A stretch of DNA of 62,550 nucleotides, the filler included, from Asterionella formosa (Eukaryota), in the NCBI GenBank assembly GCA_002256025.1. It is 9 parts of 9 records of this genome, joined end to end, with 100 filler letters (N's around TTAATTAATTAA, not from the genome) between each part and the next. Parts side by side here need not be neighbours in the genome. Positions count along the whole stretch, not along the records: positions 1 to 25,459 come from NKIB01001963.1; 8 more parts are not named here. The stretch is one strand, 5' to 3'. The notes beneath the pieces are model-generated. The model was given only the letters and a program-made list of their open reading frames with translations. It had not been told where the DNA came from and did no database searches. Positions 3,025-55,839 of the stretch are shown one piece after another; within the stretch, counting starts at the first letter, position 1; every line of letters starts with the position of its first letter. Made by a program: the position numbers and the translations under genes.

Positions 3025-4020
3025 ATGCGACCATTTCTCCTTGTCACTTTGTCTTGGTTGTTATTTACCATTCATCAACGAATGGCAAATGCGTTTCTTG
3101 TCCATCATGGTCGGTCTCATGGTACAGTTTTTGGTATCCCCACACGCAATGGTATCCAGTCCAAACAACAACAACAACATTGCCACTACATGGCAGATAG
3201 CAGTAGTAGCAGCAGCACTCCTCCAGAAAACGATGAGGATTTGGCGGCAGCATTTGCCATGTTTGCCAAGGCTTCTGGTGTACAATTGAGTGAGGAAGAA
3301 TTGTCTTTGACAGATGATGAAGAGGAAGAGGACGACGAAGAAGACGACGACGACGAAGAAGAAGAGGACATGCCAGTAACAGAGAACGTGGACAGTCTGA
3401 ATCCTTCTACTAGTGTCGATGTAAGTTTAACCAATGAGAAGATATACAGTGAAGTCAAAGAACGTGTTCTTGATACGGCTGGTGGGTTTGTGGACTTTCT
3501 CAAGGGACCGTCAGATGATGATGATAACGACGACGACGATAATGATGATGTCGATACGAACGATCCAACAAGTAAAAAGCCCAAGGTATATCAACCACCA
3601 TCAACCACTCCAGATGCAGAACTTACTGCTGGAGAAGTTGTGGAGTCCGTCTTGGATGCACTACTTCATTTAGACACTCCCGAACCACTCTACGGGATGC
3701 AAGTTCTCTTTGGGTATTCATCAGACTCGTCGCAAATCAAGCAAGAAGAAGGATTGACACCAGCCGAGTATACTGAGTATCTAAAAGACTCGGAATACAA
3801 GGTCCTATTCAATCATCAGGGCGTGAGTATTGAAAAGGGAGATTACTCGTTCGATGGGAAAAAGGCTTTCTACACAGCACACTTGAAAGTTGGAGAAAAA
3901 GTGCAAGATATTGTGGCAGTGAATATTATTTTGAGCAATGCTGGGGAGGAATCCGATGCATGGATGGTGGATTCATTGCTGATTCGACCAGAAAGTATGA
4001 GGCGGCGTCGGAGAAAGTAA
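3025..4020 (+). CDS. Putative plastid-targeted acidic protein of unknown function with a conserved-looking C-terminal domain
   Basis: 331-aa ORF. Signal peptide followed by ANA-FLV cleavage motif, D/E tracts, then a globular C-terminal domain (PDAELTAGEVVESVLDAL...WMVDSLLI). Confidence 0.8.
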   Translation: MRPFLLVTLSWLLFTIHQRMANAFLVHHGRSHGTVFGIPTRNGIQSKQQQQHCHYMADSSSSSSTPPENDEDLAAAFAMFAKASGVQLSEEELSLTDDEEEEDDEEDDDDEEEEDMPVTENVDSLNPSTSVDVSLTNEKIYSEVKERVLDTAGGFVDFLKGPSDDDDNDDDDNDDVDTNDPTSKKPKVYQPPSTTPDAELTAGEVVESVLDALLHLDTPEPLYGMQVLFGYSSDSSQIKQEEGLTPAEYTEYLKDSEYKVLFNHQGVSIEKGDYSFDGKKAFYTAHLKVGEKVQDIVAVNIILSNAGEESDAWMVDSLLIRPESMRRRRRK

Positions 4021-4949: not shown

Positions 4950-6174
4950 CTTAATGCTGCTTCAATGGAATGATTTAAACAATAATCAACACATCGAAGC
5001 ATACCCATGGACCATACACAACATGTCCAAGTCATCATTTTCCAGTCTACACATGTACTTTGGAGGTGGGAGCTTTCCCGAAAATTTTCTTGCCTCTGGG
5101 TAGCTGGAAAACAATGTGCTCAGCATTTATAGTCAATCTTGACAACCTTCTAGGCAATTCTCTGTCTTCTTCTTTGTAATAATGATTACATACCAATGCC
5201 TCTGCAAAAGCTTGCGAAAACCAAGCATGCTATCAACCTTCTTTTTGCAGAAGTGTTAATATGCCAGCATGGTATGATATACTTCTGTGACTGAGGAAGC
5301 AAAAGAGGAATGAAAATACTCTATTTGGCCACCATTTTGTCGCCCATTCCACCTATAAACTAATTGGGGAATGCCTCGTTGCATTATTATCGTCAACAGC
5401 ATGCCAAAACTTGTAGTGGTGGTAGAAAACCATTGTAAATGTCATCTTTTTCTGTTATTCATGATCTGCGCACACTTTCTCCTCCACCATTTTTCAATCC
5501 AAATGATTGGTTACAGGTTTTCCCTCTACCTCTTGATCAATGATAAAGATAATTGAATCATTCCAGAGCTCCAAAGGAAAGATTAAATCACATAACTGGA
5601 AGGCAGTCGACTTCAAATGAATTGGAAATGATGAAATATTGGATGCTCTGCCTTTGATCCATTCAACTGGCTCCTGTCGCGAATTCCTGACATATCCCAC
5701 TCATTGTCAAACAAATTGTTTGCAACTTCATTGTGAAAAAACCTTTTCAGATGCTGGGCCATTGTCAACACCAATATCAACAAATCTAGCTGGGATGGCA
5801 ATATCGTCAGTGTCAAGAACTGCACCAGTAGTACACTTTACAAGTTTGAGAAGCTCTGAAGGCATCACTTCACCTTCCGCTGCCTCCTCAAGTAAATAAT
5901 AGCCTTCATCATAGTAAAGGTGTCTGGATCACAATCGGAAATGATCTAGAAGTGATTTTCAAGGGCATACAGCTCAGTTGAATCAACATCATCTACAGTC
6001 CTGGGAACAGTGACCATAATGGCCATCACATCCTTACCTCTGATTTCCTTGAGCTCCCTCTGCCGATATGTCATTCTTTCAAGTCAATGGTCTATAGTGA
6101 TGTTCACATGATGATTTCGGACCCACAGCTATGGGTGAATGTACTTGGAAAGGCATGAAACGACGGCACCTTTG
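4950..6174 (-). pseudogene. Degraded, internally deleted piggyBac-like transposase (3' portion)
   Basis: Minus-strand translation gives GAVVSCLSKYIHP at the 5' end and HHYKFWHAVDDNNATRHSPISL*VEWATKWWPNRVFSF followed by a Cys-rich tail. Resembles diatom piggyBac-type transposases. Stops and frameshifts present, and most of the catalytic core appears deleted. Confidence 0.6.
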
Positions 6175-9100
6175 CCGACTGAGGGTGATGCATGGCTTTG
6201 TCCTTTTCCCCATTCTTCTGATCGCGAAACATGATGCAGATGATGTCGGCGAGATGATTGGTTGTGTGGTCATGGGTGATGTCAGTGCGGTCCTGAAAGA
6301 AGCGTAGATCCTGGACTCGGAGTATTTTGGCGTCTGTAAATAAAAAATATCATGAAAATATGATCAAGGGTATTGTACGCTAAGTGGCACAGGATTTTCA
6401 CACATATGATAGTTTTTCGATCAAAAATATGATCATGCAGTAAACTTTTACCGAGCTTGAAGTATGATGAGACTATCATAGTTATAATACCATTGCGTCG
6501 TATAATTAGTTAAACATGGTCATCTGATGTGTATACTTTTGTCATACATCTATCTTAGCATGATCGTAATTCTCATCGATATCACTGTCTAAAATAGGAT
6601 GAAATTGATCGAAATTTAGAACTATATTTAGCTAAGAATGGTTCTATGATTCTATCATATCTTAAGTGGCTACAGAATGTTCTACAATGCTCTCAACGCA
6701 ATGATTGTTGGTGCCAATTTCACTTCCACCTTCCCCCCAATCCAATTCTGAAGGTTGTTGTACTGGTTGCCTTGCCGTTGTTCCCCTGCTTTGTTCCATT
6801 TTTACTCCTGAGGGTTGTTCTGAGTTTGCATTCACGCATTTTCCTATTACTATTGAATCTGATTTGATGTTCCAATTAGCCATACTAACAAAGAGAAGCA
6901 GTTCATTGTTAGCTGTTCATGTTTTGCTTACACAACAACATTCGTTTCGCTTCTATCTTGCTTCACTTACCGATGATTGAGGAAGTAACTGATGCATATT
7001 TCTGTAGAAAAATGTGTCAGTCGAAGATTGAATGAGAAGCAAAGTATCGATCAATAAATGGGCTCCAACACTGCTGTTTGTAACTTACAAATACTGTTTG
7101 TCTACCATTATCCTGAAAGAAGCAACACATATGTGTCAGTTTTTCTAACAGTTTTGGATTGATCCAAAGATGGGGCTGATAGGCAGCACTTACCGATTTC
7201 TTTTGTCCACATTGATGGTTGGCCAGCCACCAAATCGAAAAGGAGCTATTGAATCACTGAAAGGGGACGAGTCATTCCGTATTTGTAATCCCAGCAATTG
7301 ATCATCTTGGCATTTGCTCTTGACAAACCGTGATGCTATGCACAGCTTCTTGTTGATTCCGCCCTTCTCCATCATATTCACTCATTCTTATCGTTCAGTA
7401 TTTTCACTTCAGTTTTTCGCAACATGTGTTGCTTGAGATCCTTCATTTCAGGAAGTGGATGCAGCATGAGGACAAGGAACATGAAAGGCATTCGCTCTTG
7501 ACTTCATTGTGCTGTATTATCACTTTCGCTTTCCGCGTCATTATCTGCGTTAATCCTTCAATTCAGGAGCAAAGTGTATGCATGACAAGGAACATGAAAA
7601 CATGATTTCAAATGTTTCAGCCATGAATACATATATATAAAGATTTGTAAGAAGTTTAAATGTATACATAGTTGAACATTTGCATAGTTTTAAACACGCT
7701 CATTATACGGCACATCCTGTGTATACTAATATCAATTTTGATTATACATAATTCAAATATATACAATGCATGATGAGTTCATAGTTTTCCATGACCTGTT
7801 GAGTTTTTTCATTTTATTTGTGTCAATTCTTGTACCTACAAGTCAGTGGCTGATTTAGTTAAGCCCCTTAATAAACGGGAGCCATCACCAATTTTTCAAA
7901 TGGTCGAAATCATACATTTATGTATATAGACATATTGACCAAAATTCATATGGCCTATCGGTAGTACTGTATAATTGCTGGTAATTACTTCCATCATTGA
8001 AAAACCACGATAGTGCAGCGGAAAACTGAATATGCTCATGTGTTTAGGATCATTTGATCATATTTTTAAGATCAATTAATCCTGATTCTTAAAAATAAAT
8101 GTTGATCGTTCATTTTCTCATCAACGACACTGTTCATCATATGATCAGTATGTTATGATCAAAGGTATAGGATAAACAAACCTTAATTCCTCCCCCTCCC
8201 CCTGTATACAGTACGGAAGAAGTGATAACCCCCAAGCTACCAAATTTTTATGTCTTGTAAGAATTATCGCAGCATGCATGCATACTAGTACATGACTCCT
8301 ACTGGTATATACAATGCGGAAGTGATGACCACCAGACTACCAATCCTATAGGTCCTGTAGAATTATCGCAATATGGCTGCATATCTAATGAAAGGGCGGG
8401 AGGAGTCATCCATGCACCTGTATAATATGAAATATGGAAATGATCAAATATAGCTAGTCTACACAAGGGGCAGTGCATCATATATGCACTGTTATTTTAA
8501 TTCCTATGAAATCTCGCTCTTGATCTGTTCTGCGCTTTTTCGCCACAATTGTTTTCATTGGCTGTTTCACTGGACAGCATTCGAATTGATTGTGCTTTGA
8601 ACGAAGCAATGATCAAAGTCCACCACATTGCAGAATGGTGAGTCTCACAACTAAGTATCAGCCAGTCGATTAAAATTGGACTGTCTTTTGTGCACCCTTG
8701 CTCGTTTTGTTTGTATTTGAGGACTTGGCAGCTGTCAGCCAAGAGCAGCAATTGCATACCACCATTAATTGTCTATTCAAGTTTCGAATGCGTTCAGCTA
8801 TGATAACTTTTGCTCTCCCCTCCTAAACACTATCTCACCACCCTTGTCATAGATTTGTCAAAATTATGATCAGATGATCATAATCCTATGATGCATCATA
8901 GAAATATGATGGTTTTTATTTGCAGACGGTGACTAGACATATAATTTTATTGTCTGTTTAAAATAGTTAAATTTCCATAGTCAAAAGGGTTACTATTTAA
9001 ATTATGAGGGCATTTATCAAAATTATTAGATGATATAACGAAAAATTATGATCAGATGATCATAATCCTATGATGCATCATGGAAATATGATGGTTTTTA

Positions 9101-11307
9101 TTTGCAGACGGGTGCGGTATTCTCTGGTGATTGTCAGGTATTCGCAGGACCGCATTGCGAATAAAAAAGGCTAGGATGGCTAGAGGACTCAGGCAAGCAT
9201 CAACCGGTGTAGCTTGGTGAAAATACAATTTTAAAATAAAGTCAATTGTTAACGCCCGCTGGTGTTTAACGGCTGGATTGGTATGTCTGTAGGCCGACAG
9301 CTGGAGGCGTAAAATTCGGTTAGTTTTGCCATATATGTTGGTAGTGGGGTCGGGTCGGTCATGCTCCACAAAGGTCGCCGAAAGAGATGCGATGGTATTG
9401 CGGACTGTTGCCGATGCCAGAGGAGTGTCTCGATGTGCGCTGAACTCGGCTTGCCGGATGGCGTGCGCGAAGGCTCCGATGAGTTGGGTGCGGTTGTGTT
9501 CCGGGGAGAGGTGGACAAGGAAAGGGTCAGTGGTGGCAGCGCAGAATCCGATGGAGCCCAGGAATTCTTTCCGAATGCGGAAGACGCGAGTGTACTTCGT
9601 TTTGGTATTAGTTTGAATCCCTTGGGAGCGCGCTCTCTCTGCGTCCATAAGGTAAGTCTGGAGGCGATTTCGGTGGGAATCGGCGAGATGTCGAAATTCG
9701 GGGGAATCTGATGGGTAGCAGAGGATTGGAGGAGGTGTGTCAGTTGAAGCGGCGAAAGGTGGTGGTCGCGTGAAAGGGAGTCGGCGATGATGTTGTCTTC
9801 TCCCGGGATCCAGTGACTGAAGCTACAGGCTTGTGTTGTGTCCAGTATGTCGGCAAGCCATCGTGAGATGGCAAGGTGGGTCGATTTTTCGTGTCCCTGG
9901 AACCTGGCTCCGCCGCAATGGAGCCAATAATCTGCCGTGGAGCTGTCGAGTTGAGAGAGAATACAAGCATCGGGTTGAATGTTCCCTGCCGCAGCCTCAA
10001 TCGCGATGGTAGCTAGTGATTGATGCGAGTTATTCTAGGAGGAGGTTCAGGGGCAATTTTCCGCGGTCAGCCATTGGGACTTCCCACCTCCAGGCTTGGC
10101 CGGTCATCAGGGAGAAACCGCCTATGCCGTGTTGGCATGCGTCGGCTTGGAGGAGAATTGTGGGGACGCGAAGAGTCAGCCTGTTGAGGCTAATGCCTTG
10201 TCAGGCGATGCGGAGGAAACCAATCAATTGCCGCAGTTCATCTGTTTGTAACTCGTTTAAAATCACGCCCTTGCCACTGGCCCATGCTTGACATTCCGCT
10301 CATCAAAGGTGACACAAAAAGGCTTGGGCTGTTGGAATGACATAGGAGGCGTGATTCAGTCTGCCAATTGTTGTGGCTAAAATTTCGCAATCAACTGAGT
10401 GTAGCTGCAGGATTTGGTCTATTTCTGCATTCCAGGATTTGATTTTTTCCTGTGGCAAGCGCAGCCAAAGGGTGTGTGCTGTGTTGACCTCCCACCCCAG
10501 AACGATCTTGGATTCTTCAGGGGAACCTTCAGCTAACATCTTGTCAAATGCTAGAAGGTCATCGCGTTGAAGGGGTTCGGTGTCTGCAATCGGGCGACCC
10601 AGTAGGTGTAGTGTAAGTAGTGTAATTCGGGAACCCTTCCATATTGGTGTACTAGGTAGGTCAAGAAAGCAGGTGAAAAGGTCATCTAGATAGCAGTCGG
10701 TGAATGGTTCGAGGTTGGGGTAGGTCGAAATGAGTGTGGGTAGTGCGGGTTGACAGGGCGATTTGCTTCTGAGATAGCACGGTTTCCTAACATATGTGTG
10801 TTGGTGTGGGGATTCCAAGGTAGGAGTGGAATCCGGATTCCATGAGGTGTCATGTGTGATGAGGTTGCATGTGTCGCAGGCGATTTCGGATATGTCGCTC
10901 CACATGCTTGGGTTTGGTGCTCCGCCGAATGTCATGCATAGTGCAAGCAGGGCAACGTCATCTATAATGACAATTGCTTGTGAGGCTGTGGTACTGGATG
11001 TATGTAGGCAACGATATGCAGCTTTGATGTCTAATTTATTCATTAGAGTGTGAGTGTCTGGATTGATTTGTCGTAGTTCCACAACGTAGTGGATAAATCG
11101 CTGTAGAGTGCCCTTTCGAGAACTCAAATGACTGGTCATGTGTCAATCGGTCTTTTGGGATTATTTCTCCATGCTTGTTAATTGTAGCTTGTGTCACTAT
11201 GCCCATTGGAGCAACGACTGCATTGGGGAGTAAGTGAATTTTTTTGGGAGGTAGTGATAGTTGCCAACCGCGTTCAACTTCTTTGATCAGCAGCTTCATG
11301 ACCACAA
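6175..11307 (-). mobile_element. DIRS-order (tyrosine recombinase) retrotransposon fragment: RT - RNase H - YR, degraded and interrupted
   Basis: RT: EVERGWQL..P, DRLTHDQSF, KLDIKAAYR, TFGGAPNP, YLDD (10303-11305, frameshifted). RNase H: DACQHGIGGFS...AWRW (~10070-10150). YR: ...FAMRSCEYL (9111-9648), continuing as KILRVQDLRFF...FRDQKNG at 6180-6330. Confidence 0.85.
6331..9110. mobile_element. 2.78-kb non-autonomous TIR element inserted into the YR gene (CMC/CACTA-like, 2-bp TSD)
   Basis: 23-bp TIR CGTCTG(T/C)AAATAAAAA(AT/CC)ATCAT with 3 mismatches, and GG on both flanks. Removing the insert plus one GG restores MRSCEYLTITREYRTKILRVQ in frame. ATCAT/TGATCA subterminal repeats. Confidence 0.8.
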
Positions 11308-11560
11308 GATTTTCAAGGGCATATTACAGCTCAGTTGTATCAACATCATCTACAGTCCTGGGAGCAGTGACCATAATGGCCATCACATCCTTACCTATGA
11401 TTTCCTTGAGCACCCTCTGCCGATATGTCATTCTTTCAAGTCGATGGTCTTTAGCGATGTTCACATGATGATTTCGGACCCACAGCTATGGGTGAATGTA
11501 CTTGGAAAGGCATGAAACGACAGCACCTTTGGCCATTGTCAAATTTTGTTTTTGTGCCAT
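11308..11560 (-). pseudogene. 5' end of the same piggyBac-like transposase, with ATG
   Basis: ATG at 11560 gives MAQKQNLTMAKGAVVSCLSKYIHP*LWVRNHHVNIAKDHRLE. 11308-11531 is a diverged direct repeat of 5954-6174. Confidence 0.6.
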
Positions 11561-11729
11561 CCTGCACAGATATTTTCGAGTTTTTTTGGCAGGCGTACAC
11601 TCATGTATCTAGTGTTTTGCATGTACAAAGTAATCGCAAAATCGCAGCTTAATTTTCATATCAGAAGAAAAAAAGAGAATTACAGTACGTTACGTCACTT
11701 TGTCTATGTCTAGAAACTTAATGGTTGTT

Positions 11730-12165
11730 TGGGTACCAGGTACCACCTCTAAAAAAACGTACAGGAGGGGCCAGCAACCTCAGGCGGAGGCCAGGACTCT
11801 GAATTATACGGTACCAGGGTACCTGGTACTGGTCTACGACCCCACAACCATATCGATTACCGGTACTGGTACCTGGTACCGGTAGTCTTGTACCGGTAAG
11901 TGCGTAAAAGTGAAGTACGAACGCACTCCTGCCTCCTGGCAAAACAACAGGTAAGCAATTCTTCGTCCGGGCTGTCCCGCCCTGCGACGGGAAGACTACG
12001 GTTGGTATATTGATGTACCGTACCTGGTACCAGGTACCAGGTACCAGTTTCAATGTACAACATAAACCATGATACGGCAGGCATTGCCTGCTGGTACCTG
12101 GTACCAGGTACCTGGTAACACAAGAGTACTGGTACTCCAGGTACTGGTACCAGTACCGGTACCGC
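11730..12165. repeat. Dense GGTACC/CCWGG palindromic cluster
   Basis: e.g. tacctggtaccaggtaccaggtaccag (12021-12047) and ggtacctggtaccaggtacctggta (12093-12117). Confidence 0.85.
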
Positions 12166-12713
12166 CTTCCGCCTTCCGAGTTGCTACTTTCTGGAGTTCT
12201 TTCCCATCGAAAATTCAAGAAGCAAACCAGTCATGTTAACCATACGTATGTGTCCATACGGTCGTATGTAAAATTTCCATTCTGTTTAAATCTTGTATCA
12301 GATTATGTAAAGTTCTCCAATTATTCAAGGAATTAAAAGTATTTAGTAATTATTAACCGTTTTTTAACGTTGAATGATTATGAAATCTATTACTGGATCA
12401 AGAAATGAATAATGCTTTTGCCGCCATTATGCAGGACCTCCATCGGGATTAGTCTCCATTTCATGGGTTCCGTTATACATCCATGTCCACGAAATTTGTC
12501 AATTTCTTGAAGTTTATCATACATTAAGTGTAAATTCATGCAGTCGTAGGCGGGCTGCTTGTTCACTCACTCGGAACCAGGTACAACGCAGCGTGATTAA
12601 TTTACTGCAAACTACCACTCATACGATATCACAAAGGCGACTAAGAAACTCTTGTAACTCTTGTTGCTTATTTTTACACACTGATATTTTCGATAGGAAT
12701 TTTTGTGCTGAAG

Positions 12714-12998
12714 ATGAGAGTCCTTCTTCTGATTTCCGTTTTGTTCACGGTGGTGACTTCTGATAGAGCTGCAGAGGTCAGACAAAGGGATTCTAGAATC
12801 GAAAGTCTCGATGAGGACAAAGCCGCAGCGTTTCTTGAAGACTCGAGCTACTGGGGACGAACGTTAACAGAATCCATGTCCGTGTCAGCAAAGGCAAAGG
12901 ATGGCAAGAAAGGGTCCAAGAAGAGTTCGAAATCGTCAAAAGCAGGAAAAGCACCTAAGGGATCCAAGAAGGGCAAGAAGCGTCGCGTTCGAAAGTAA
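12714..12998 (+). CDS. Small secreted silaffin-like, lysine-rich (KXXK) peptide precursor
   Basis: 94 aa from the ATG at 12714. Signal peptide MRVLLLISVLFTVVTS, acidic pro-region, RXL site (WGRTL), SMS, then 15 Lys in 43 aa as KDGK/KGSK/KSSK/KSSK/KAGK/KAPK/KGSK, ending RRVRK. Confidence 0.75.
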   Translation: MRVLLLISVLFTVVTSDRAAEVRQRDSRIESLDEDKAAAFLEDSSYWGRTLTESMSVSAKAKDGKKGSKKSSKSSKAGKAPKGSKKGKKRRVRK

Positions 12999-13443
12999 AC
13001 ATGACCGCGACCATTTATGTCTTAAGTCTTCTCGCAAAATCACTTCCATGTTCATCTACTTCATTCACATCGAAGGGAACAACCTTTTTATCTTTTTGAC
13101 GAAGCTGAGCAACCTTTCTCTTTCTATAAACTAGAAATTTGCGAGCTTTAAATAGTATTCTGTTTTTTTTTCATTATTACCCCATTGCTTAGGTGTGGCC
13201 AACTCATTTCTATGCATTTTTTGTGTAATCTATTGTTGCGGCATCTTCCTTGCTTGCGATATTTCCCTTCGCGGTCTGCAAGATGGGAGTACCGGTAGGA
13301 AAAAGGAGGAGAGCAGGTTACCACCTAAAAACTGAGAGTCCACGTTCAATTATTAACTCCTTCTTCCGAGTAAAATTATCGAAGTTTCTAATGATAAAAT
13401 TCGAATCAAGTACCGGTACGAACTTTATTGTGCTCGACAGAAT

Positions 13444-14503
13444 TCAACCCTAGCTTAGAGGTAGGGTTGAAAAAATAATATTGAGTCAGACTAATCAAAC
13501 AAATACTTTTCACGTCTAAACTAAATATGTATATCGCTACTCGGAGCTTTCACCATTGGACACCCTTTCCATATGCTTAGACACAGTCATTGATCGAAGT
13601 AGGGGTATACCGGTAGGTCAACTCCATACAACGTCAGTATTTAGGATCTGGCCAGAAACTGCAGAAAGGAATTTCGGTTTTTTAACCATGCTGAAAATAG
13701 TGGATTTTACCGGGCCAACTTGTTTATTGCCCTAGAAAAGAAACGAAGTTCCTTTCTGCAGTTTCTCGCCGAAAGTGAACTTCTGGGGCAATATGAAGAT
13801 TACCCATGTACTTATCTCTTCTTCAAACCCAGCCAACGTTGAGCTATCGTCACCCCAAAATTCGACAAAATCGGCCTTTTCAACGGTCTCCAAAATGTCG
13901 GAATCAGAATCACTAATCGCCGAGATGTCATCATCGGAATGGTAGTCTTGTGCTAAAATATTTAGTCTTAAAATCTCCTGAACAAAAAAATTCCAATATA
14001 CGTGCCAGCTTCACTATAAATATTTTGATTGGTCAGCTTCAATTACTTACCGATATTTGATTGGCAAGGTTTGCGAGGTCTTGCAAGCCCAGACCGGCCA
14101 CACTGGATACACGTTTAAAAATTTCTTGGATGATCGCCGGTACCCCGGTATGGTACCTGTTACCAGGTACCCTATCGACTACATTTGACACACGCGTACT
14201 ACTCCTATGAATAGAGTTCACTTCAAATATTTGCCGAGCCGCCAGGTCGTATGACACATTAACCGTCGATCGGTGTATAGAATGTATTCCGATATAGATA
14301 TAAAGATGTACAATCCATATCTATATAGTTACTGAATTAGAAAAGGAATCTATGCACGTACGCGCAAATTTCCAATGATTTGAATATTTCAAATGGAATC
14401 ATGTAGTCGTCTAAAAGTAGTTCATAAAAGTTCTTAGTTCCAGGGAATTTCGGCAACCCTAAGCAATATTTTAATTTTGCTTTAGGGTTGAAATGCAGGA
14501 ACC
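13444..14503. mobile_element. ~1.06-kb non-autonomous TIR element (MITE), copy 1
   Basis: Colinear diverged repeat of 23183-24265. Right end GGGTTGAAATGCAGGAACC followed by TTAA; it is the reverse complement of the left end of copy 2. Confidence 0.75.
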
Positions 14504-16248
14504 TTAATCAGTTCTGTATAGTAGAAGACCATACATTTATTGAGATCTAAGGCATTTTGACTCAAACACCTGCAACCTTCGCCAAAGTCAAACATTTGCA
14601 TTTTCCGGGTCGTTTTAGCCTGTTATTCCTATCATATACTGGTTGGTAAAACTTCTTTTCACACCCTGAATTTTAGGTCAAACCGACACCTAAAAAATGG
14701 TCGGTGTAAAATGTACACATGAGCATGACTTCTACCTTGGGCGGACCACACCCATCCATACCTAATACAGAAAGTACTGATAATACGTTGCATGGGGACA
14801 ATTATTGTCACCATGTACTATGATGCACACAATCAATTATGACTCACCATCACTTCATTTCAACCTCAACTAAACGATAGAATGTAGATGAAATGATTCA
14901 TGAATACTTAATAGCTAACTATTAGAAGTGTCAGTACTACTTGTTCTGTTGAAAATTGTTGACAACATTCAACAATGATGGCAGCATGATTCTTCGGTTG
15001 GGTGCTCGAACCAAATTCATTCCCTTGTTCATTTTAACAACTACTAGTAGCAGTTCATCAGCATCAAAATTTCAAAATCTGAAAGTTTCGATGTCAACAT
15101 TGTAGTCTTTAGCAGTAGATTTATCCATACTGCTAGCTAGTTTGAATAATCTTGCACATTGTGAGTTTAGCTTAATGCACTCTTAAATCGAGATGATAGC
15201 TGGCAATCAATTGGGCTTGAATTGGCGAAGAAAACAAAGAAGTATGACGCACTCTATACTAGGCATGGATGGTAAACAGAATAAATCAGACGACTACATA
15301 ATCAAACGAACATTTTCATGGCTGTTACGATATCTAATCATCACCATTCTATTTTAAAATCACATCCACGCATGCAACGAGCTGGCTTTTAGATTAGTGG
15401 TCGCATTACCAACATACTACAACCCAAAGTTCACTTACAATTTTGCTGCATACTAGCTAGTATTTCAGAGATTGACGAGACAGCATGGACTTCGGTTGAT
15501 TGCTGTCATAAGCGATCGTCGCTTTATACAAATGAGCACAGCCGTAGCTAGCAATGACAAAGGTGAGCTGTGGCAAACTGTAGACCGATCACATGGTTTC
15601 GTAAAATTTAATGTCAAGGACAACGAAAAGTTCATGCCGACAAGATTCTACAACACACTGGTACGAACTGACATATATGTAAGCGCATCCATCAGGTATG
15701 AGGTACCGGTACCAGGTACCAGCAAGTCGCGGTACCATCATGGGCAGTTCATTTAACCTAAAATTCCCCACCTTCTTTTTCAAGTTTCACCGACGTTTTA
15801 GTGGAGTCTCTCAACAAATGCCTATAGTTCTGTATGTTACTCCTTTCTTATTTTGAAAAATCGGTCACTAATTAATAACGGCAGGTCTTAAAAGAGATAC
15901 AAATAATAATTTTAATTATTAAATTGTATCTTCAGAAAAAATATCTCATTAATGGCAAAACAGTTAGCAGTTTTTTTCGTGTCTTCGCAAACATGTGCAT
16001 CAAACTCTCAAAACAGCAAAAAAATTAGCAATGCGCACTTCAATTATACAACCTGTCTGACCATCATTATTACAGAAACGACAATGACAAATCGACTGGA
16101 AGAAGTTACAGTTGGGCTGTCATCGACAATTTTGATTTAGAACAGGAAATAGAAGCAGAACAACAGAGTTTCTGTTTCTTGCAGTAGTTGCCTTATCATT
16201 TTTGGAGTCATACAATGCACAAAACTCAAAGCCAGTGTGATCAGCAAA

Positions 16249-16686
16249 ATGGGAGCATCAATGACTTGACTGGAATGATTATGTACCAAGAAAGCGTCTT
16301 TATGAGAATAAGTTTCATTTTGAATATCGCATGTCCCTTCAAGCTTTCAATCACCTACTGGAACTACTTTGACCTTCCATCACAGTTAATGCTGTCAAAT
16401 CCAATGCAAGTTCCGGTCTATACAGCACAAATCGGCATATCTATCCTGAGTTGATCCTTGCCATTGGCCTTCGCTGGCTTGCAGGCGGAAATCTCATGGA
16501 AATTCATCATGTCAACAGAGATTCTTATCTATCTGTTATGCAATTTCTAAAACATGGCTGTGAACTCTTGCCCAGCTCTATCTACTATTAAACTTCCAGC
16601 AACAAACAAGGAGAAACAAACAGAGGTGAATGGATTTCTTGGAAAAAGCGAGCAGCAACTATTTCGTGGATGCGTTGGTGCTATAC
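16249..16686 (+). pseudogene. Degraded PIF/Harbinger transposase fragment
   Basis: Translates to FEYRMSLQAFNHLLELL, PELILAIGLRWLAGGNLMEIHHV and FRGCVGAI, homologous to the ORF at 25560-26563. Contains stops and is truncated at GCVGAI. Confidence 0.75.
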
Positions 16687-17116
16687 CACAAAACTATTCA
16701 TTATTACTTTTGTGGATACTATAATTACCAGTACCAGCAACCCGGGTTTAGGTGCCCATCATATCAGTAGTTTTCCATACGGTATTCGTCATGAATTTGT
16801 TTGGACCTCGCATATCAATCTTTTCAAGTTCTCATCTGTACGATGGTCCTCCTCTGCTTGTTTCAACCCACTTCACTGGTAACAGGTGATTGCGGTGATT
16901 TTATGAAACTTTCTTGTATGCACTGTTTCAGGTTGCCTATACATACTATGTAAAAGGTGATGCCAGCTGAATGGAGGATTTTTAGATTTTTCATTCCATT
17001 TCTTGTTGACAGCAAACTTTGGGACTAAATACGGAAGTAACGCAGGCTAATTGATGTGTTCAAAGCAAGATAATTTTTTGTTAGTAACATTGCCTGAATA
17101 ATTATGTTTGTATCTA

Positions 17117-17943
17117 CTCCCTCTGTCCAATATCAGTTCCATCGATTTTTCAAATTTATCCGGGGCCATTTTGACTCATACGATTTCCTCCGGCTCAGTT
17201 GCCCTATTGTGTGGCTTGCTCTAAGCTCCTGAATCATTTATATTTATTTTATATATAGAAGGATTAAAATTGGCAACTACGTTTTAAACATCCTTTTTGG
17301 GCTTTTTCGATTTTCACTTATGGCTAGTCTATCTCGAGCAAAATGCAGATGCATGAGAACCCATTTTTCTTCGAACAATCTATTCTCACCATACGTGCAA
17401 AGTACTATTTAACAGTGGATCAATGGTAACTTGCGTTCAATTATAGATTGCGCAACCCCGAAAGTGGCGATGATGGAAGGGAAGAAAACGACGGTATCAT
17501 GCTCGTTTTGATAATTGTAGCCGTTAATCATCCGGCAATATGGTCCATGTAGATGCAACAACCGTAGAAAGGTAGAAAGCATATCCAAAAACTTTTTTCT
17601 ATATATATATATTATAATTATGATAGTGGCTTGATGTATTCGGTTTCCCGCAAATTTTGATTGGCCAGCCGATGTAAAACAGCATTTGGCGATATGTACA
17701 TGTATGCAATGAATTTGCGTATGTTAAATTGGTTTCAATTAATTTATTTATATGCTCATAATTTAATTACAGAAACCGAGTATATGTTCACATCTACTAT
17801 GTAACTAATAAAAACGCATTTTGTCAAGTAAGCCGACCCTCACGTAGAAAATTGGTATGTTGGCTACGTAATCCTTCATAAGCAAACAGTTAAGACACTA
17901 GTGGTGCCGGCAAATCAATGCAACTGTTGTTGGACTGAGGGAG
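17117..17943. mobile_element. Stowaway-like (Tc1/mariner-derived) MITE, 827 bp
   Basis: TA|CTCCCTCTGTCCAATATCAGTTCCATCGATTT ... AAATCAATGCAACTGTTGTTGGACTGAGGGAG|TA. ~32-bp imperfect TIR, TA TSD, AT-rich non-coding interior. Confidence 0.85.
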
Positions 17944-19998
17944 TAGCATATTTAGTCCAAAACGTGAATTTACTCGATTTAACATGGACTCTCGGTTCAA
18001 AATCTTCTAAACGTTGACTCTCAGCTTTTAGGTGGTACCCGGCTTTTAAGTGCCCGACCATAGCAGCTTATTACCGGCAGTATATTCATCAAGAATTCGT
18101 TAGGACCTCATATATCAATCACTCAAGTTCTCATCTATCTGGTGCTCCTTCTAATGTTTCAACTCATTTCACAAGTGATCGTGGTGATTTCGTGAAGAAA
18201 CTAATATTGACAACAAAAATTTAAGTCTCTGATAGATGTTGCATTTTTCTTCGGTGAAGAACTTTCTCAGGTTTTATACTTCATTATCCTGGACCCCCAA
18301 TGTACACTGCCATGACTGAATTCGACTGATTTTTCTTAAAAAAGAAATGTCAGCCTTGCAAGGGTGGAGATTCTACAATCGCCACACCAAAATTTCAGCA
18401 AGCAGACAAGGAAGGGTATACGGGGGCAGAGGGCAACCTATCTCTTCTCTGCATCCTGAAATAGGGGGTTTCTTAGGAGGTATGCTTTTGATAGACACCC
18501 TGATTTCCAGACATATACATCACATGGGATTGAGATACCAAAATATACATTAGATGTCTATCTCGATAATAAATGTTTATTGGCAAGGATTGACAGGTGG
18601 AGAGGCAAATTTGGCATTGGAGTATGATTTTTTACAGGCGGAGATGTACTTAAAAACCACAGAACAATGTTGCCCCTTAACTTCTGAAGCTGAATGCATT
18701 CTTGCTCACAATCCCTACATGATTTTTTCCTCTACTTAATGTCATAGTCAAAATTCAACAGGTCATTTCTGTTCCTATGAGGCATGCCTTGCATTCTTGC
18801 TTATTGTTCGAGGACAACGCTGGTGCTCTTGCTCGTGATCACAAGACTTCCATAGGTCATTACTGTTACTATGAGCGAGGCATACCTTGCATTCTTGCTC
18901 ATTGTTCGAAGACAAACTGGTGCGCGCTATTGCTCTTTCTTTTGCTTGATCACAAGAAGACTTGACTATGTACTAAATATGATTGTTTGAAGGACGATCA
19001 CTTCAGTTCACATTTCGCTTTGGGTTGCACATCAAACTTTTCCGTATTTCTACTTTTTATCAAATTACCACTACCAGTCATTACTTTCATCTATCTTGAG
19101 AAGAAAATAGTATATGTTGGTATTTTTCTGGTCATTCTGTCATTGATGCTTTTCTGCTTCTTCACAAGGGTGTAGGAGATAATTTATCCATGAAAAATTA
19201 TGATGTCACTTGTCATTGGCTTCTTCTTTTGTCCTTCAATTGTTTTATTGCATCCTATTTACAACTCGATATCAGCTGCCATCAGTTTTGGTTACTCTTT
19301 GAATTCAGTAGAGTCAACATAGTCAGACAAATCTTACTCATTATTTCTAGAGTTAACTTACTTTAGACTACTACAGTCATGTTTCTTAGATAGAGGCATA
19401 TATGTCACATATACTGGTGGCTTAGTGATCCAGCAAATCCTGCATCTTCTTATTCAATTCTGCAGTATACTGACAACCCCATCAAAAATCACTGACCACT
19501 GATTGATACTATATTATTGAGAGGATTATTATGATCAGATCATATGGGACTTACAATGCATGATGATTTCCCATTGGTAGCAAGCAGCCAGATTTTCGTG
19601 ATAATCAACAGTTCTAAACTGATAGCTCTGACATTGCAACAAGGGAAGGTTTTTGGCAGAACCACACATTCGGAGTCATTCCTAGCTTCAATTAAATGAT
19701 CAGCAGTTACACCACGGACAAAGAAAAAGCTAATGGGTCACAAACACAAGAATACAAATGATCTCACATCAAGGTTTACTTCAGTTTTGGTCCAGTTAAA
19801 TACCTATCAATTCAATACCTAGGATTCCTATCAATCCAATGATAACAACTACCATGATCTGCTTTCACTTGACAAATGAAATTAAATTATTTTATCTGGA
19901 TGACAACACTTGTGGTTGTAAGCATCGTCACTGTAACTTCATTGTATTTGTGACAATATATACATGCATGGTTTATCCAAAGTGATACAAAAGAGGGT

Positions 19999-21508
19999 TT
20001 AATGTGCTTGAGCACCCTCGTCATAGCCAAACAACATAATAGAAGATGGAGAGCGTGACAAGTGACCCTCATCATCATCCTTCATGCTAACAAACGTTCC
20101 AAGAGGGTTGAACTGATTGTTGACAATAACCTTTGAGAGACTTGCACGCAAGTGCTCATGAGAAATGTCTTCTTCATGATCAAAATGGTTGTCATCATAG
20201 TCATCATACATTTCTCCTTCATTGCAAGAATGTGAGAAGAAACACTGAGACACATCACCAAGTTGACGGGTTGATTTGGAAGGTGCATTAGCAACATCCA
20301 ATATATTGAGGCGCTCTTCAAAACTGTCTCTCCTGACCTGGTTCCCAATCATTGTTTCATTCACACCCTCACAATCTGGCCTGTTGATCAACAAGTCCTG
20401 CTCTGGAGCAGTCCCCATGAAAAAGTAGTTATAACCACATGCCTCAGTAGTCTTCACTGGCAACTCTGGATGCAGGTGGAAAGTAGCATACTGCTTCAAC
20501 AACGCAGCCTCCTCCAAGATCTTGTTGCGCTCCTCCATCTCTTCCAAAGAATCGTACTCAAGAGCAGAGGGACGGGAGAAGTAGTTGCGACCATATGCAT
20601 TAGCATCAGTAGTCTTGACAGGCAACTCTGGATGCAGGTGGAAAGTAGCATACTGCTTCAACAACGCAGCCTCCTGCAATACAAGCATGCGTTCCTCAGC
20701 CTCATCAAAGGTATCTTGTTCAGGAGCAGAAGCGCGAGTGAAGTAGTTACGACCACAAGCCATGAGGCCAGAGGCAACAACAGGTTTCTCAGGATGCAAA
20801 TGATACCGAGCATACTTTTTCAGCTCTGTCGCCTCTGCCAAGACCATCATGCGCTCCTCGGCCTCTTCACATGTGTCTTGTTCGGGAGCCGAGGCACGAG
20901 TGAAGTAGTTGCGACCACATGCATTAGCATCAGTAGTCTTGACAGGCAACTCTGGATGCAGGTGGAAAGTAGCATACTGCTTCAACAACGCAGCCTCCTG
21001 CAATACAAGCATGCGCTCCTCCATCTCTTCCAAAGAATCGTACTCAAGAGCAGAGGGACGGGAGAAGTAGTTGCGACCACATGCATTGCCGTTGCTCGTG
21101 ACAGGTGCTTCAGGGTGTAGATGAAAGGAAGCATACTGCTTGAGAAGCTGTGCATCCTTCAAGATCTCGCGACGTTCCTCCAAACCAGCGTTCAATTCTG
21201 AAAGGCGTGAAGTCAAGGTGTCAGAGAAGGGTTCCAGTAGATCGCATGCGAATTTTCAAGGTAAACGACAAGCACAATAACGACATCTTACCTTCATCCG
21301 ATTCATAGACGACAGAATCATCCAATTCCTCATCCTCAACCTCAAGGGTTGGTTCAATATCATCGATCACAACGGCGGATTGTTTGATGATTTCATGGGC
21401 GGATTTCCGTCCCCTCACGCATTGATTCACAGAAACTTCAAGCTTTTGAAGCTGCTCCTTGGCTGGAGCAATCTGGTTCTTGGCGTGAGAGGACTGTGCC
21501 GATCCCAT
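19999..21508 (-). CDS. Two-exon ~471-aa protein with five 54-aa tandem repeats (HLHPE.PV...ACGRNYF.R.SA) and an N-myristoylation-type start
   Basis: Exon 1 21508-21292 (MGSAQS...), intron 21291-21198 (GTAAG...CTGAC...TTTCAG, frame-preserving), exon 2 21197-19999. 162-bp DNA periodicity. Confidence 0.85.
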
Positions 21509-23182: not shown

Positions 23183-24265
23183 GGTTCCTGCATTTGAACC
23201 CCTGGCTCGAGGTAGGGTTAAAATAAAATATTGTGTCAGATTAATCAAAAACGTATTTTTCACCGAAAAAAATATATAACGCTCACCGGAGCTTTCATCA
23301 TTAGTCACCTTTGTCATACGTATGCTTACATACAGTCCTCGGACAAAATAGGGGTGCACAGGGGTGCCGGTAGGTTTACCATAAATATTGTCAGTCAGGA
23401 TAAAGGATCTGGCGAGAAAGTGCATAAAGGAACTTCGGTTTTCTAACTATGCTAAAAAGAGTAGAAAATTCGGGGGAAATCTGATTATGGAATAGTAAAT
23501 TAGCGAAGTTCCTTTCTTAACTTTCTCGCTGGAAGATCTATACTGATACTATTTGAAGGTTACCTACTATATATCTAAATCCCCTTCAGACCCAGGCGAT
23601 GTTGAGCTATCATCTTCCAAAAATTCGACAAAATCGGCAATTTCTATGGTCAAGATGACTATTTGCCAAAACATCATCATCGGAATGGTAGTCTTGTGCT
23701 ACAACGTTTAGTTGCAAAATCTGTTATGCAAAAAAATCCATTGTAAGGGCCCGCTGCATTATTTATGTTCTGATTGGTCATACTCACATTTGTTTGATTG
23801 GCCTGGCTGGTGTGCGCGGTCTTGCAATCCCACACCAGCCACACTGGATACACATGCAACATTTTCTTGGATGGTGTTGGTCGATGCTATCATATCCACG
23901 ACCTGCTGGTACTACCTAGCAAAGAGTAGGATTACCAGAGTATCTGGTACCAGGCATCTTGCGGGTACCGTTAAAGTAAGCAGACCAGAACATTTCTAGA
24001 ATGCACTTTCAAATATTTTTCCAAGATGCTGGGTCATAGATGTGACATATATTTGTTCTTGATCTGAGTATACTACAACCGCTAAAGTAGCTATATGTAC
24101 ATTCAGTGATGAATAATCTAATTGTATATATTTAGGGCATTTGGGAAGGAATCTATGTATTTGTGCGCAAATTTCCACTGATTTAAATATTTCAAACAGA
24201 ATCATTGATATTCAAATTAGTAGCGAATAAAAGTTCTTAGTTACAGGGACAAATTTCGGCAACCT
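23183..24265. mobile_element. MITE copy 2 (same family as 13444-14503)
   Basis: Left TIR GGTTCCTGCATTTGAACCC. Shared internal blocks, e.g. AAAATTCGACAAAATCGGC and CATCATCGGAATGGTAGTCTTGTGCTA. Right end truncated. Confidence 0.75.
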
Positions 24266-24869
24266 CTATGAAACAGTTTGTTGTTGCATATGCTTCTTTG
24301 CTGCTGTAAACAATGTTGCTGTGATGTAAAAAAATTGCAGTTCAATGAATTAGGCCAATTCTAGATCATGACAAGAAGAAAGCCAGTGTGGGGCATTTCT
24401 GTTGTTCTATCCCACCAAAATGCGTGTTCAATAGTGAAGATTCCATTCTAAAAGAGCAGCATTGATTGTTTGTTATGTGAAACAGTTGAAAAAGTCCTCA
24501 ACTTCATTATTTGATAGAACTTTTGAAATAGTAAGTTGAAAAAAGCTTTTCAATTTCTCGAATGACCTTCAGAATATTAGTTGAATGACCTTCAGTAAAT
24601 TATGTAAGTGAAATTATAGAATTATGTGAACAGAATTGAAGAGGTTACATGAACCAAATCATTCATGCTATTGATGGGTATTAACAGCCGATCACCACTC
24701 AGCATCCAAATCACAGTATGAAACTGATTTGGTGTGACCCAAAATGAGTGGCAAAATGTCACAGCTGCATACATGGGTTATAATGAAAAACACATGCCCT
24801 CACCATGGGAGTGTTTTTGACCCCAAATGGGAGGAACCGCAGGGAGGGAAAGAATAGCAATTAAGGGTA

Positions 24870-25459
24870 CCACTTAAAAACTGTAAGCCACCGCTAAACG
24901 GAGTAAACGCACGGTTTGAACTTATTTTACAAGATACGCTATTTATTGTCACGAACGAGTTGTTCAGATTTATATAGCGAGTAAATACTTCCGTACTTGT
25001 GTTGTTGCATTGTGTACATTGTTAATTAGGTATTATCGCCCAAAGGTTGCTGTCGACGTGAAATTGCGAAAATTGGATATTTTCACGTTTACTCGATTGA
25101 GCAAGCATCACCTTTTATATACGTATCCAGCTATGACAATATTCCTCCGCTAGAAAACTAATTTAGTATCCTCTAAAATTTATTTAATATGGCTACGACG
25201 TCATTGCGCTTTCGCTCGTGCGCCATAATAAAGAGATAAATTCACTAATGGAAAACGTCAAATAGGAATTCCTGGCGCGCCCGAATTATGAGTACAAAAA
25301 TTAAATGCAAACACACAACAGTCACCCATCACCCATCACAATACCAACATCATGACCTCGAAAGCGCCTCGACAAGGCAATGTCTTGCCTCGAAAGAAAT
25401 TGTCTCCTGAAGAGTTGGTCAGTGTTCAGATTTGTCTTAACAATGTGATTAGGGAGCTA
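24870..25459 (+). mobile_element. Left end of a pogo/Tc1-mariner-like element with the transposase N-terminus (MTSKAPRQ..., ATG 25352), contig-truncated
   Basis: Begins TA|CCACTTAAAAACTGTAAGCCACC. Near-identical to 50306-51020 but with a different flank. Confidence 0.7.
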
Positions 25460-25559
25460 NNNNNNNNNNNNNNNNNNNNNNNNNNNNNNNNNNNNNNNNN
25501 NNNTTAATTAATTAANNNNNNNNNNNNNNNNNNNNNNNNNNNNNNNNNNNNNNNNNNNN
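25460..25559. other. Artificial contig linker (N44-TTAATTAATTAA-N44); also at 51021, 52669, 54317, 55965, 57613, 59260 and 60907
   Basis: Identical 100-bp spacers with stops in all six frames. Flanked contigs measure 25459, 25461, 1548 (x4), 1547 (x2) and 1544 bp. Confidence 0.97.
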
Positions 25560-26857
25560 TTTTTTTTCAGAACACACCATTTTGTCTGAAGAAGACCAAA
25601 TGCCATTTCTATTCTTATCCTTAGCTGTGAAAGGAAAAAGTTAAATGTATCCTGTGTTGGATCATCACGTTGTGAGCCAACAAAGGGAACAAGCATTACA
25701 TCAGACAATGTGTAAGCTGCATCGCCGACCAGATAAAAACCTGTGTTGAATGCTGCAACTTGATCGAAAATGGAAGTTTTTTCAAAAGCTACTTGGTCAC
25801 TGCATTTTCCCGGTGCAATTACACCAAAATAAATAAATCTTGAGTCAGCATCACAAACAGCCTGGACATTGATTCCATAAGTCATGTAGTGACCGGAAAA
25901 AAATGAACCAGGGTTGTTGCCACTTTCAACTATAGTCGGGCGGTTGATGGTGGCAAGGAAGCCGTCAATAGCACCAACACATCCTCTCATCACGCCCTCT
26001 GAGCTTTTGCATTCAAAGCTGGAAGCCAATTTGATAAATTCTTCTTTTTCTTTTGGAAAAATAATTTCGAGTTCTTCACAGTTTAGTACAGCATCAATGA
26101 ACAAATCACGACATCGATAAAGTGAAGCAATGCTACAACCGTAGGCATGACGAATGTCGATGTAACTGCCACCAGCCAGCCATCGCAAACCAATGGCTAC
26201 CACAATTTCGGGAATTATGGGCTCAGAAGTGCCACATTTGGAATAATTCCCTGCAATCTGAATTTCCAGCATGGAGGTGAGTTTTTTGAATGCTCTGTGT
26301 GACATTCTGTATGTCTTCTCGAAAGCAATCTCGTGATTGAGTTTCTCGACATGTGATTGCCAGGAGATTCTTTCGTGGTGCCACTTGTGCCTTCGTTGTC
26401 GTCGTCGTTCAGATGACTGAAGCTGCCGTTTACAGCGTCGCCTTTGTCGTTTGGATGAGTGTTCTTTTTCCTCTGCTTCCTTAGTTAAATGACAGAGGAA
26501 GAAGAAATCAAGATCACTACTGTCATCGTCATTATCATCAAGTAAATCAAATGGCGACGACATGATTCATGCAAATGTGTGTTTTTAATATTATATTTAG
26601 TTTCCCGGTAATTATATTTTGTTGTTGCTTGATATCAAGACCATCATTATATTCTGGAGGGATATACACATGATCTTCGCCAGCCTGTTGCCGTTGAAGA
26701 TTCATTTTACTCCATGATACAATGTGATCACAAATTAGTGATACAGTGACACTTTTGGAATGAATGAAATTCAGTTCAAATCGAGTTACCGTTGCTGATA
26801 CATTTTCAAAAAAATTCAAATTCCGTGATACACGAAAAAAAATGATAAGAACGACCC
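25560..26857 (-). mobile_element. PIF/Harbinger element, copy 1, with open DDE_Tnp_4 transposase (26563 to contig end)
   Basis: Motifs LRWLAGG, GCVGAIDG, INVQAVCD, YLVGDAAY, RIRIEMAFG. Terminus AATGATAAGAACGACCC|TTA (TWA target). TGATAC subterminal repeats. Confidence 0.9.
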
Positions 26858-50305: not shown

Positions 50306-51020
50306 CCACTTAAAAACTGTAAGCCACCGCTACGGCCACTTTTGAACTGTAAGCCACCGCTAAACGGAGTAAACGCACGGTTTGAACTTATTTTACAAGA
50401 TACGCTATTTATTGTCACGAACGAGTTGTTCAGATTTATATAGCGAGTAAATACTTCCGTACTTGTATTGTTGCATTGTGTACATTGTTAATTAGGTATT
50501 ATCGCCCAAAGGTTGCTGTCGACGTGAAATTGCGAAAATTGGATATTTTCACGTTTACCGGTACTCGATTGAGCAAGCATCACCTTTTATATACGTATTC
50601 AGCTATGAGAATATTCCTCCGCTAGAAAACTAATTTAGTATCCTCTAAAATTTATTTAATATGGCTACGACGTCATTGCGCTTTCGCTCGTGCGCCATAA
50701 TAAAGAGATAAATTCACTAATGGAAAACGTCAAATAGGAATTCCTGGCGCGCCCGAATTATGAGTACAAAAATTAAATGCAAACACACAACAGTCACCCA
50801 TCACCCATCACAATACCAACATCATGACCTCGAAAGCGCCTCGACAAGGCAATGTCTTGCCTCGAAAGAAATTGTCTCCTGAAGAGTTGGTCAGTGTTCA
50901 GATTTGTCTTAACAATGTGATTAGGGAGCTAGAAGCTAAGAAGGCTAACAATGGTGGAAAAATGCCTTATGGTGCTATTTCTAGGACAGTATCAGCTAAG
51001 CAATGCATTTTCCCTTGGAT
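50306..51020 (+). mobile_element. Second left end of the pogo/Tc1-mariner-like element (ORF from 50824), contig-truncated
   Basis: TA|CCACTTAAAAACTGTAAGCC terminus with an extra subterminal repeat unit. ORF MTSKAPRQ...NGGKMPYGAISRTVS...FPW. Confidence 0.7.
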
Positions 51021-51246
51021 NNNNNNNNNNNNNNNNNNNNNNNNNNNNNNNNNNNNNNNNNNNNTTAATTAATTAANNNNNNNNNNNNNNNNNNNNNNNN
51101 NNNNNNNNNNNNNNNNNNNNCCTATGCATGTAGAGAATAGATGGTTCGAAGAAAAATGGCTCTCATCATTTTGCTTGCTCGACAAGATACAGTGCGTACC
51201 GGTAGATGGCAAAATATGGTGGACGTAGTAAACATTATTGCGTTAA

Positions 51247-55827: not shown

Positions 55828-55839
55828 TACCAGGTACTA

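Follow-up and report, generated by a model that had tools for sequence, protein, structure and literature searches.

In the 62,550-nucleotide (nt) window analysed here, the whole of a stretch from the Asterionella formosa assembly GCA_002256025.1, a frame of 94 codons on the first contig (NKIB01001963.1) may encode a small silaffin-like pre-pro-peptide precursor of a pennate-type diatom, whose product would be directed to silica. We favour this reading tentatively and place it a little short of an even chance. The frame combines a putative signal peptide, an acidic pro-piece closed by an RXL motif and a lysine- and serine-rich tail (Table 1). Only two diatom species have had their biosilica proteins characterised by biochemistry, and silaffins are defined by their association with silica and by their lysine and serine modifications, not by their sequence (bioRxiv 10.1101/2021.09.18.460806). 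They are tightly bound to silica, are freed from it only when hydrofluoric acid (HF) or ammonium fluoride (NH4F) dissolves it, and carry methylated or oligo-propyleneimine-modified lysines and heavily phosphorylated serines (PMC4557024, bioRxiv 10.1101/2021.09.18.460806). The class is further marked by the precipitation or regulation of silica formation in vitro. The candidate is therefore silaffin-like by its architecture only, silaffin being a biochemical class and our reading being one of sequence.

The 94-residue product divides into three parts, MRVLLLISVLFTVVTS / DRAAEVRQRDSRIESLDEDKAAAFLEDSSYWGRTL / TESMSVSAKAKDGKKGSKKSSKSSKAGKAPKGSKKGKKRRVRK. At its N-terminus, an arginine at position 2 and a hydrophobic core of 13 residues (hydropathy of 2.5-3.05 for residues 1-14) are followed by V at -3 and S at -1, from which we infer that the signal peptide is cut before D17. 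The pro-piece is only mildly acidic, with nine acidic versus six basic residues, a net charge of -3 and an isoelectric point (pI) of 4.56. The RXL pattern is found twice in the protein, at the end of this pro-piece (R49-T50-L51) and within the signal peptide (R2-V3-L4). The tail, running from TESMS to RRVRK, contains 15 lysines (34.9%), nine serines (20.9%) and five glycines, which correspond to an unmodified mass of 4.5 kDa, a pI of 11.4 and a net charge of +16. It displays nine KXXK motifs with any X, five with X = G/S/A and four with X = S/G (KGSK66, KSSK70, KSSK73 and KGSK82), the spacers of the candidate including A, P and D besides S and G. The first three of these four abut or overlap, KSSK73 and KGSK82 are five residues apart, and from K70 to K85 a lysine occupies each third residue. 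Eleven windows of 12-14 residues running from lysine to lysine can be drawn in the tail, each with five to seven lysines. The initial annotation had described a signal peptide, an acidic pro-piece, WGRTL and a 43-residue tail with 15 lysines, all of which we recover, its quoted peptide being reproduced exactly; the at least seven KXXK that it announced are amply present. The AlphaFold model is weak (mean predicted local distance difference test, pLDDT, of 59.6; predicted template modelling score, pTM, of 0.20), with a helix at the N-terminus (mean pLDDT of 82 over residues 1-10) and no secondary structure over residues 54-94, in agreement with a signal peptide that precedes a disordered tail.

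It is unlikely that this frame is a chance product. In the six frames of the 62.5 kb, the tail is the only 43-residue window with at least 10 lysines, the next best having nine. The probability of at least 15 lysines in 43 codons is 8e-11 under the base composition of the window and 1.3e-5 under that of the tail DNA, which is 68% purine, and the two alternative frames of the tail DNA encode three and five lysines. Our crude signal-peptide rule (a basic residue first, then 10-17 uncharged residues averaging at least 2 in hydropathy, then small residues at -3/-1) was passed by only two of the 319 ATG frames of at least 60 residues, one of which is the candidate. Codon usage was scored with a table of 4003 codons from eight open reading frames (ORFs), seven of them Pfam-supported and the eighth (30814-32475) without a Pfam match. 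The log-likelihood reached +0.227 bits per codon in frame versus -0.098 and -0.018 in the shifted frames, and the coding score of the candidate ranked fourth among the 64 ATG ORFs of 70-130 residues. Tandem Repeats Finder (TRF) reported no DNA repeat under the ORF, its two hits within 9000-20000 both lying elsewhere, and the lysines, serines and glycines are encoded by mixed codons; therefore, the pattern of the tail resides at the protein level.

This layout can be compared with the published rules for biosilica-associated proteins. In Silicanin-1, about 30 residues after the signal peptide end in RRL and form an "RXL domain", which is described as typical of biosilica-associated proteins and thought to be cut off by a still unidentified protease (PMC5525289); RXL is also described as a processing motif in other works (PMC4557024, PMC5501833). 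Residues 17-51 of the candidate end in RTL in the same way, after a signal peptide that our own crude script (hydropathy, charge and -3/-1 residues) recognises provisionally. KXXK is the likely recognition site of lysine-modifying enzymes (PMC4557024), and the Brembu 2017 screen looked for a signal peptide together with repeated KXXK (X = S/G) spaced 1-6 residues apart (PMC5501833), as displayed by the four motifs named above. Pentalysine clusters, namely five lysines in 12-14 residues (PMC5501833, PMC9650480), are likewise present in the tail, and such clusters sufficed in isolation to target green fluorescent protein (GFP) to frustules (Poulsen 2013, cited in PMC9650480). The tail also contains a lysine-enriched region, defined as at least two K(X)2K within at most four residues (PMC9650480). 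By composition, with 20.9% serine and 34.9% lysine, the tail on its own exceeds the thresholds of the screen of Scheffel 2011 (via the citing PMC3478156), namely at least 18% serine and at least 10% lysine over 100 residues or more in a protein with a signal peptide. Because a 100-residue segment is required and the candidate has 94 residues, routine screens would pass over it, and the remark in the initial annotation that it is easily missed was a fair one. A SiMat-like rule combines at least three KxxK (x = G/S/A), one RxL and 10-12% proline (bioRxiv 10.64898/2026.06.16.732687). Cingulins alternate KXXK regions with W- or Y-rich ones; the candidate has one W and one Y in the whole protein and, by eye, no trace of the 17-residue UM motif (GTNKTL...) of Y-type cingulins. 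Diatom plastid pre-sequences follow a rule of F, Y, W or L at +1 of the signal-peptide cut (PMC12136025), and plastid or periplastid pre-sequences may also show a stretch resembling a transit peptide after the signal peptide. Since the candidate has D at the predicted +1 and the next 35 residues are acidic, plastid or periplastid targeting is unlikely. As far as its sequence can be read, the candidate agrees with all the motif-based rules, its disagreements being confined to rules on length, repeats or other content.

Among the named systems, Sil1p of Cylindrotheca fusiformis is described with the same order of parts, namely a signal peptide, an acidic domain, RXL and a basic, repetitive, lysine-rich part (PMC4557024). 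The peptides released from it belong to a 4 kDa class, which is comparable to the 4.5 kDa of the unmodified tail. In contrast, Sil1p comprises 265 residues with an acidic domain of 88 residues and seven repeat units that end in RRIL or RRNL and lose these ends, whereas the candidate has one unit and an acidic segment of 35 residues (PMC4557024). Its C-terminus, KKRRVRK, contains no RXL, unlike the Sil1p units, and its comparison with the RRIL end of the Cylindrotheca repeats, given in the initial annotation as KRRIL for the R5 unit, is a loose one. No relatedness to Sil1p emerged from our whole-library search, in which the presence of Sil1p is unconfirmed and which involved no direct alignment of the two proteins. 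Other points of comparison are the lysine-enriched regions of cingulins and the pentalysine clusters of tpSil1 and tpSil3 in Thalassiosira pseudonana. The candidate's KGSKKSSKSSK is nearly identical by eye to KSSKGSSKSSK of LER3-W2 (Table 1 of PMC9650480), and its residues 66-76 belong to a region with six lysines in 12 residues and abutting K(X)2K, as in the lysine-enriched regions of that diatom. Cingulins and tpSil3, according to the same literature, differ from the candidate by their hundreds of residues and their W/Y-rich or other domains. The ten proteins retained by Brembu 2017 from this centric species are also longer, with 214-763 residues and 2-4 KXXK repeats (PMC5501833, Table S2), than the 94-residue product with four KXXK of the pennate-type diatom studied here. 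Silicanin-1 shares with the candidate the stretch ending in R-x-L after the signal peptide and continues into an asparagine/glutamine-rich (NQ-rich) folded domain, a transmembrane helix and a cytosolic tail, whereas the candidate has only a disordered lysine-rich tail (PMC5525289). We found no silaffin-like precursor with a single unit and fewer than 100 residues in the literature, in a search that was not exhaustive for that question.

The relatives of the candidate are few. A phmmer search over 1.84 billion representative proteins (E <= 1e-3) returned three proteins, the candidate ORF, P0016 and P0015. A word-indexed homologue search recovered only the candidate itself (1 of 101 candidates) and a profile search only the candidate and P0016 (2 of 3662 candidates). 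P0016 is a 79-residue ORF (whole-library E = 3.9e-4, 36.9 bits) with 90% cluster mates, P0017 and P0018, on contigs of up to 5.7 kb; these three variants are all frame-keeping. P0016 falls in the size class of the candidate, shares its M[RK]VLLL start and has a signal peptide of equal length, and both have a WGRxL column (W46 in P0016, W47 in the candidate). Identity is distributed unevenly, with 9/16 residues over positions 1-16, 6/25 over 17-41, 12/17 over E42-S58 and 2/36 thereafter, so that the most conserved segment is a box with the consensus EDSSxWGRxLxExMSxS. In addition, P0002, P0003 and P0004 are near-identical variants of the candidate on other contigs (525-883 nt), with three substitutions in total. 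P0002 and P0003 reach the C-terminus with the frame open to the same end, and P0004 stops at residue 78. Within the window, tblastn with the candidate and with P0016 recovered no second copy or related exon.

The third protein, P0015 (1530 residues, E = 2.4e-10), was rejected as a relative and is considered a chance match inflated by repeats. It looks intracellular and is built of helical repeats, nearly identical and about 67 residues long, each with a weak match (TLTE.MS.AKA.D ... KAG.PK) to the candidate over residues 21-93. The low E-value arises because six copies of one weak match are summed; the best single BLASTP segment has 31.2 bits, a score that, by our estimate, chance alone would produce thousands of times in 2.4e11 library residues. 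In a shuffle test, 0/300 shuffles reached the real score, a result that was not used because it is biased by the preselection of P0015 for its match. No P0015-like sequence was detected in the window by tblastn.

Under the reading that we favour, the precursor would enter the endoplasmic reticulum co-translationally and lose its signal peptide before D17, and the RXL endoprotease would then cut after L51, freeing the 4.5 kDa tail. Along the secretory pathway, its serines might be phosphorylated and its lysines methylated or alkylated with polyamines, and the pentalysine clusters would direct it to the silica deposition vesicle. There, the tail would be embedded in the silica or help to precipitate it, acting like a single-unit silaffin or like the lysine-enriched region of a cingulin-type protein.

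Several observations weigh against this reading and explain our caution. The signal peptide was called with an in-house crude rule, not with a trained predictor. Lysine-rich tails are not confined, among secreted proteins, to those of silica. The candidate has one lysine-rich unit instead of repeats: there is no internal repeat and no C-terminal RXL, and no tandem units of the RRIL/RRNL type of Sil1p were found. The rule of Scheffel 2011 fails on the complete protein (94 residues, 16.0% serine, 17.0% lysine), as does the SiMat-like rule, the five KxxK and one RxL outside the signal peptide being accompanied by 1.1% proline. The 94-residue protein retrieved no Pfam family at E <= 10, only chance matches in a PDB sequence search (E >= 0.39) and no usable match in the ESM Atlas. 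Regarding its relatives, the homology to P0016 is borderline, and BLASTP aligns residues 12-53 only. Past the box, P0016, P0017 and P0018 read QGMWKVIVMLT..., in an ORF without a lysine cluster that ends in ...MSMSMSSQGMWKVIVMLT(N/D)EWSALHS, again with no lysine tail. In these ORFs, the conservation thus does not extend to the tail, the part that is relevant to silica. The database copies of the candidate, for their part, begin with "MLKM" at a GTG (12705) upstream of the ATG, and are therefore mechanical ORF calls, not gene models. They come from contigs of 525-3899 nt, for which a DNA or RNA origin is indistinguishable. The silaffin-like gene proposed in the initial annotation is partly supported: the succession of signal peptide, RXL and K/S-rich tail, the KXXK and pentalysine rules and the diatom host agree with it, and its silica-related function is putative.

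These observations also nourish other explanations of the frame. One is that it is non-functional, having arisen by chance or very recently in an intergenic island rich in repeats, where a purine-rich stretch is read as lysine. We consider this rather unlikely. It would account for a short frame with no family past one borderline relative, for the purine content of the tail DNA (68%) and for the flanking repeats at 11308-11531 and 13448-14132; the Atlas "recognition" value of 1993 also falls short of 2300, a level attained by 91 of every 100 known-family proteins. Against it stand the lysine content, improbable even under the local composition (P = 1.3e-5, with 3 and 5 lysines in the other frames), a signal peptide, a well-placed RXL and a KXXK tail that share one frame from the first ATG, a coding score in favour of that frame, and the 12/17 residues around RXL kept in another lineage with three frame-keeping variants. 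Alternatively, the candidate could be a genuine secreted pre-pro-peptide whose pre-pro part defines the family and whose lineage-specific lysine tail yields a polycationic product with a non-silica role, such as binding to anionic polysaccharides or mucilage outside the cell, acting on membranes or against microbes, or carrying another cargo. The conservation, which sits in residues 1-16 and 42-58 and not in the tail, and the P0016-type ORFs without a lysine tail would agree with this, as would the many candidates that composition screens deliver (89 in T. pseudonana, mostly uncharacterised; PMC3478156). We hold this alternative to be unlikely, as the KXXK with S/G/A spacers and the strict period of three from K70 to K85 reproduce the pattern of frustule-targeting regions localised by experiment (PMC9650480), and as RXL domains are typical of biosilica-associated proteins (PMC5525289).

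Starting from the same uneven conservation, one could also propose that the conserved unit is not the lysine tail but a portable cassette of signal peptide and RXL box. In that case, the RXL endoprotease would use the box as an extended determinant of recognition or sorting, and the cassette would here deliver the smallest natural single-unit silaffin, a genetically encoded silica tag of 43 residues. The box is kept at 12/17 residues between lineages, its flanks drift and the downstream product differs. P0016, P0017 and P0018 carry MSMSMS right after the RXL site where the candidate has MSVS, and the MS(M/V)S run recalls the unexplained "MSMSM motif" of two T. pseudonana silaffin-cluster genes, in the only paper that we found with this string (PMC3478156); this link is a lead only, and the cassette seems to us improbable. 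Finally, the frame could belong to another or a larger gene model, as a terminal exon or through a product altered by splicing, which we regard as very improbable. The genome is eukaryotic, P0002 is open for 25 codons farther upstream, and the P0016-type relatives diverge abruptly past the box, where their ORF could enter an intron after ...MSMSMSSQ. Indeed, since the database proteins are mechanical ORF calls, a hidden intron after ...SSQ leading to a lysine-rich exon is possible in these relatives. Nevertheless, the candidate opens with a putative signal peptide at its first ATG and is bounded by an in-frame stop upstream and by a stop of its own, the ATG at 12714 being the earliest within a stop-to-stop frame that starts at 12645. 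Moreover, no lysine- or serine-rich continuation is found in any frame over the 450 nt of unique sequence downstream, and the tblastn searches of the window mentioned above revealed no second copy or related exon.

If the silica-directed reading is correct, the candidate would be the simplest natural model in which to test how a signal peptide drives entry, how RXL is processed, how lysines are modified and how a peptide is targeted to silica, as well as a compact silica-immobilisation tag. It would also show that short precursors slip past 100-residue composition windows and gene callers. If it is unexpressed, it is one more composition-based candidate. In terms of novelty, it is plausibly an unusually small addition to a known type of biosilica precursor and no new kind of system.

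Table 1. Parts of the candidate precursor frame, in coordinates of the window.
Feature	Position	Strand	Basis or remark
Whole coding frame	12714..12998	+	94 codons plus TAA stop (12996-12998); single exon
Putative signal peptide, residues 1-16, MRVLLLISVLFTVVTS	12714..12761	+	Hydropathy, crude rule, identity with P0016
Acidic pro-piece ("RXL domain"), residues 17-51, 35 residues, ends in WGRTL	12762..12866	+	
RXL motif R49-T50-L51, proposed endoprotease site (putative cleavage)	12858..12866	+	
Most conserved box, residues 42-58, EDSSYWGRTLTESMSVS, spans the RXL site	12837..12887	+	Alignment with P0016
Putative mature peptide, residues 52-94, 43 residues	12867..12995	+	Composition; predicted coil
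KGSKKSSKSSK, residues 66-76, lysine-enriched region and pentalysine cluster	12909..12941	+	

The window consists of nine contigs (25,459 nt, 25,461 nt and the rest of about 1,548 nt) separated by eight identical 100-nt joiners (N44 + TTAATTAATTAA + N44) at 25460-25559, 51021-51120, 52669-52768, 54317-54416, 55965-56064, 57613-57712, 59260-59359 and 60907-61006. Since the contigs were evidently concatenated by length and the gene order across the joins is artificial, the true neighbourhood of the candidate is limited to 1-25459. The host is taken to be a pennate-type diatom, judging from the TFIIH Ssl1 gene at 35315-36787 on the second contig; of the 8000 candidates scored against this gene, 780 were relatives at E <= 1e-30. 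All eight relatives bearing an organism name among the 120 listed are diatoms: Seminavis (65% identity), Fragilariopsis (63%), a Bacillariaceae metagenome-assembled genome (MAG; 62%), Mayamaea (61%), a truncated MMETSP name, "Pseudo..." (61%), Nitzschia (60%), Fistulifera (59%) and Odontella (55%). Most of them are raphid pennates, and Odontella is a centric diatom. Searching the Atlas with Ssl1 yielded no taxon of use. The first and second contigs share a 596-nt repeat at their ends (24870-25459 and about 50336-50931, 98% identity) and their tetranucleotide frequencies correlate at 0.94. In addition, positions 1-127 of the first contig are a 100% reverse match to 55838-55964, with which the contig spanning 54417-55964 ends; the overlap is like those of an assembly graph.

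On the first contig, dispersed repeats flank about 1.9 kb of unique sequence, within which the candidate lies. On one side, 11308-11531 repeats 5954-6174 at 95%; on the other, 13448-14132 repeats 23200-23873 at 70% and 14305-14480 repeats 24108-24287, the pairs ranging over 70-75%. The initial annotation had placed the gene alone among transposons, which is roughly right as regards the repeats but overstated, and the two Pfam-supported transposases are located on other contigs. These are DDE_Tnp_4 ORFs at 25560-26563 (-) and 59900-60901 (-), on different contigs and each abutting a contig end, as would be expected if the assembly broke at mobile elements. The region 11700-12250, about 470 nt upstream of the candidate frame, is a degenerate, partly palindromic, GGTACC-rich array (TRF period of 15, consensus GGTACCTGGTACCA, 12093-12163), with a 22-nt exact copy on the second contig at 30234-30255.

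Rfam and transfer RNA (tRNA) scans of the first contig gave no matches. The long minus-strand frames at 9052-11323 show retroelement-like strings by eye (CYLDDLF, NIIADSLSRD; GEDNIIADSLSRD) and may be a diverged mobile element; they had no Pfam match at E <= 1 and no meaningful PDB match and were left unnamed. Farther away, the ORF at 3025-4020 (+), of 331 residues, begins with MRPFLLVTLSWLLFTIHQRMANA followed by FLV, with an ANA/F site that resembles a diatom bipartite plastid pre-sequence; an F after the signal-peptide cut is characteristic of algae that import proteins into complex red plastids. Its body is extremely acidic with D/E runs, its C-terminus reads RRRRRK, and it has no Pfam family. 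The frame at 19999-21255 (-), of 418 residues, contains about five copies of a unit of about 65 residues (LKQYATFHLHPELPVKTT...ACGRNYF...APEQD...EERM.VL.EA) and had no significant Pfam match. The small ORF adjoining it at 21224-21508 (-) has a high coding score and may be an upstream exon of this repeat-containing frame.

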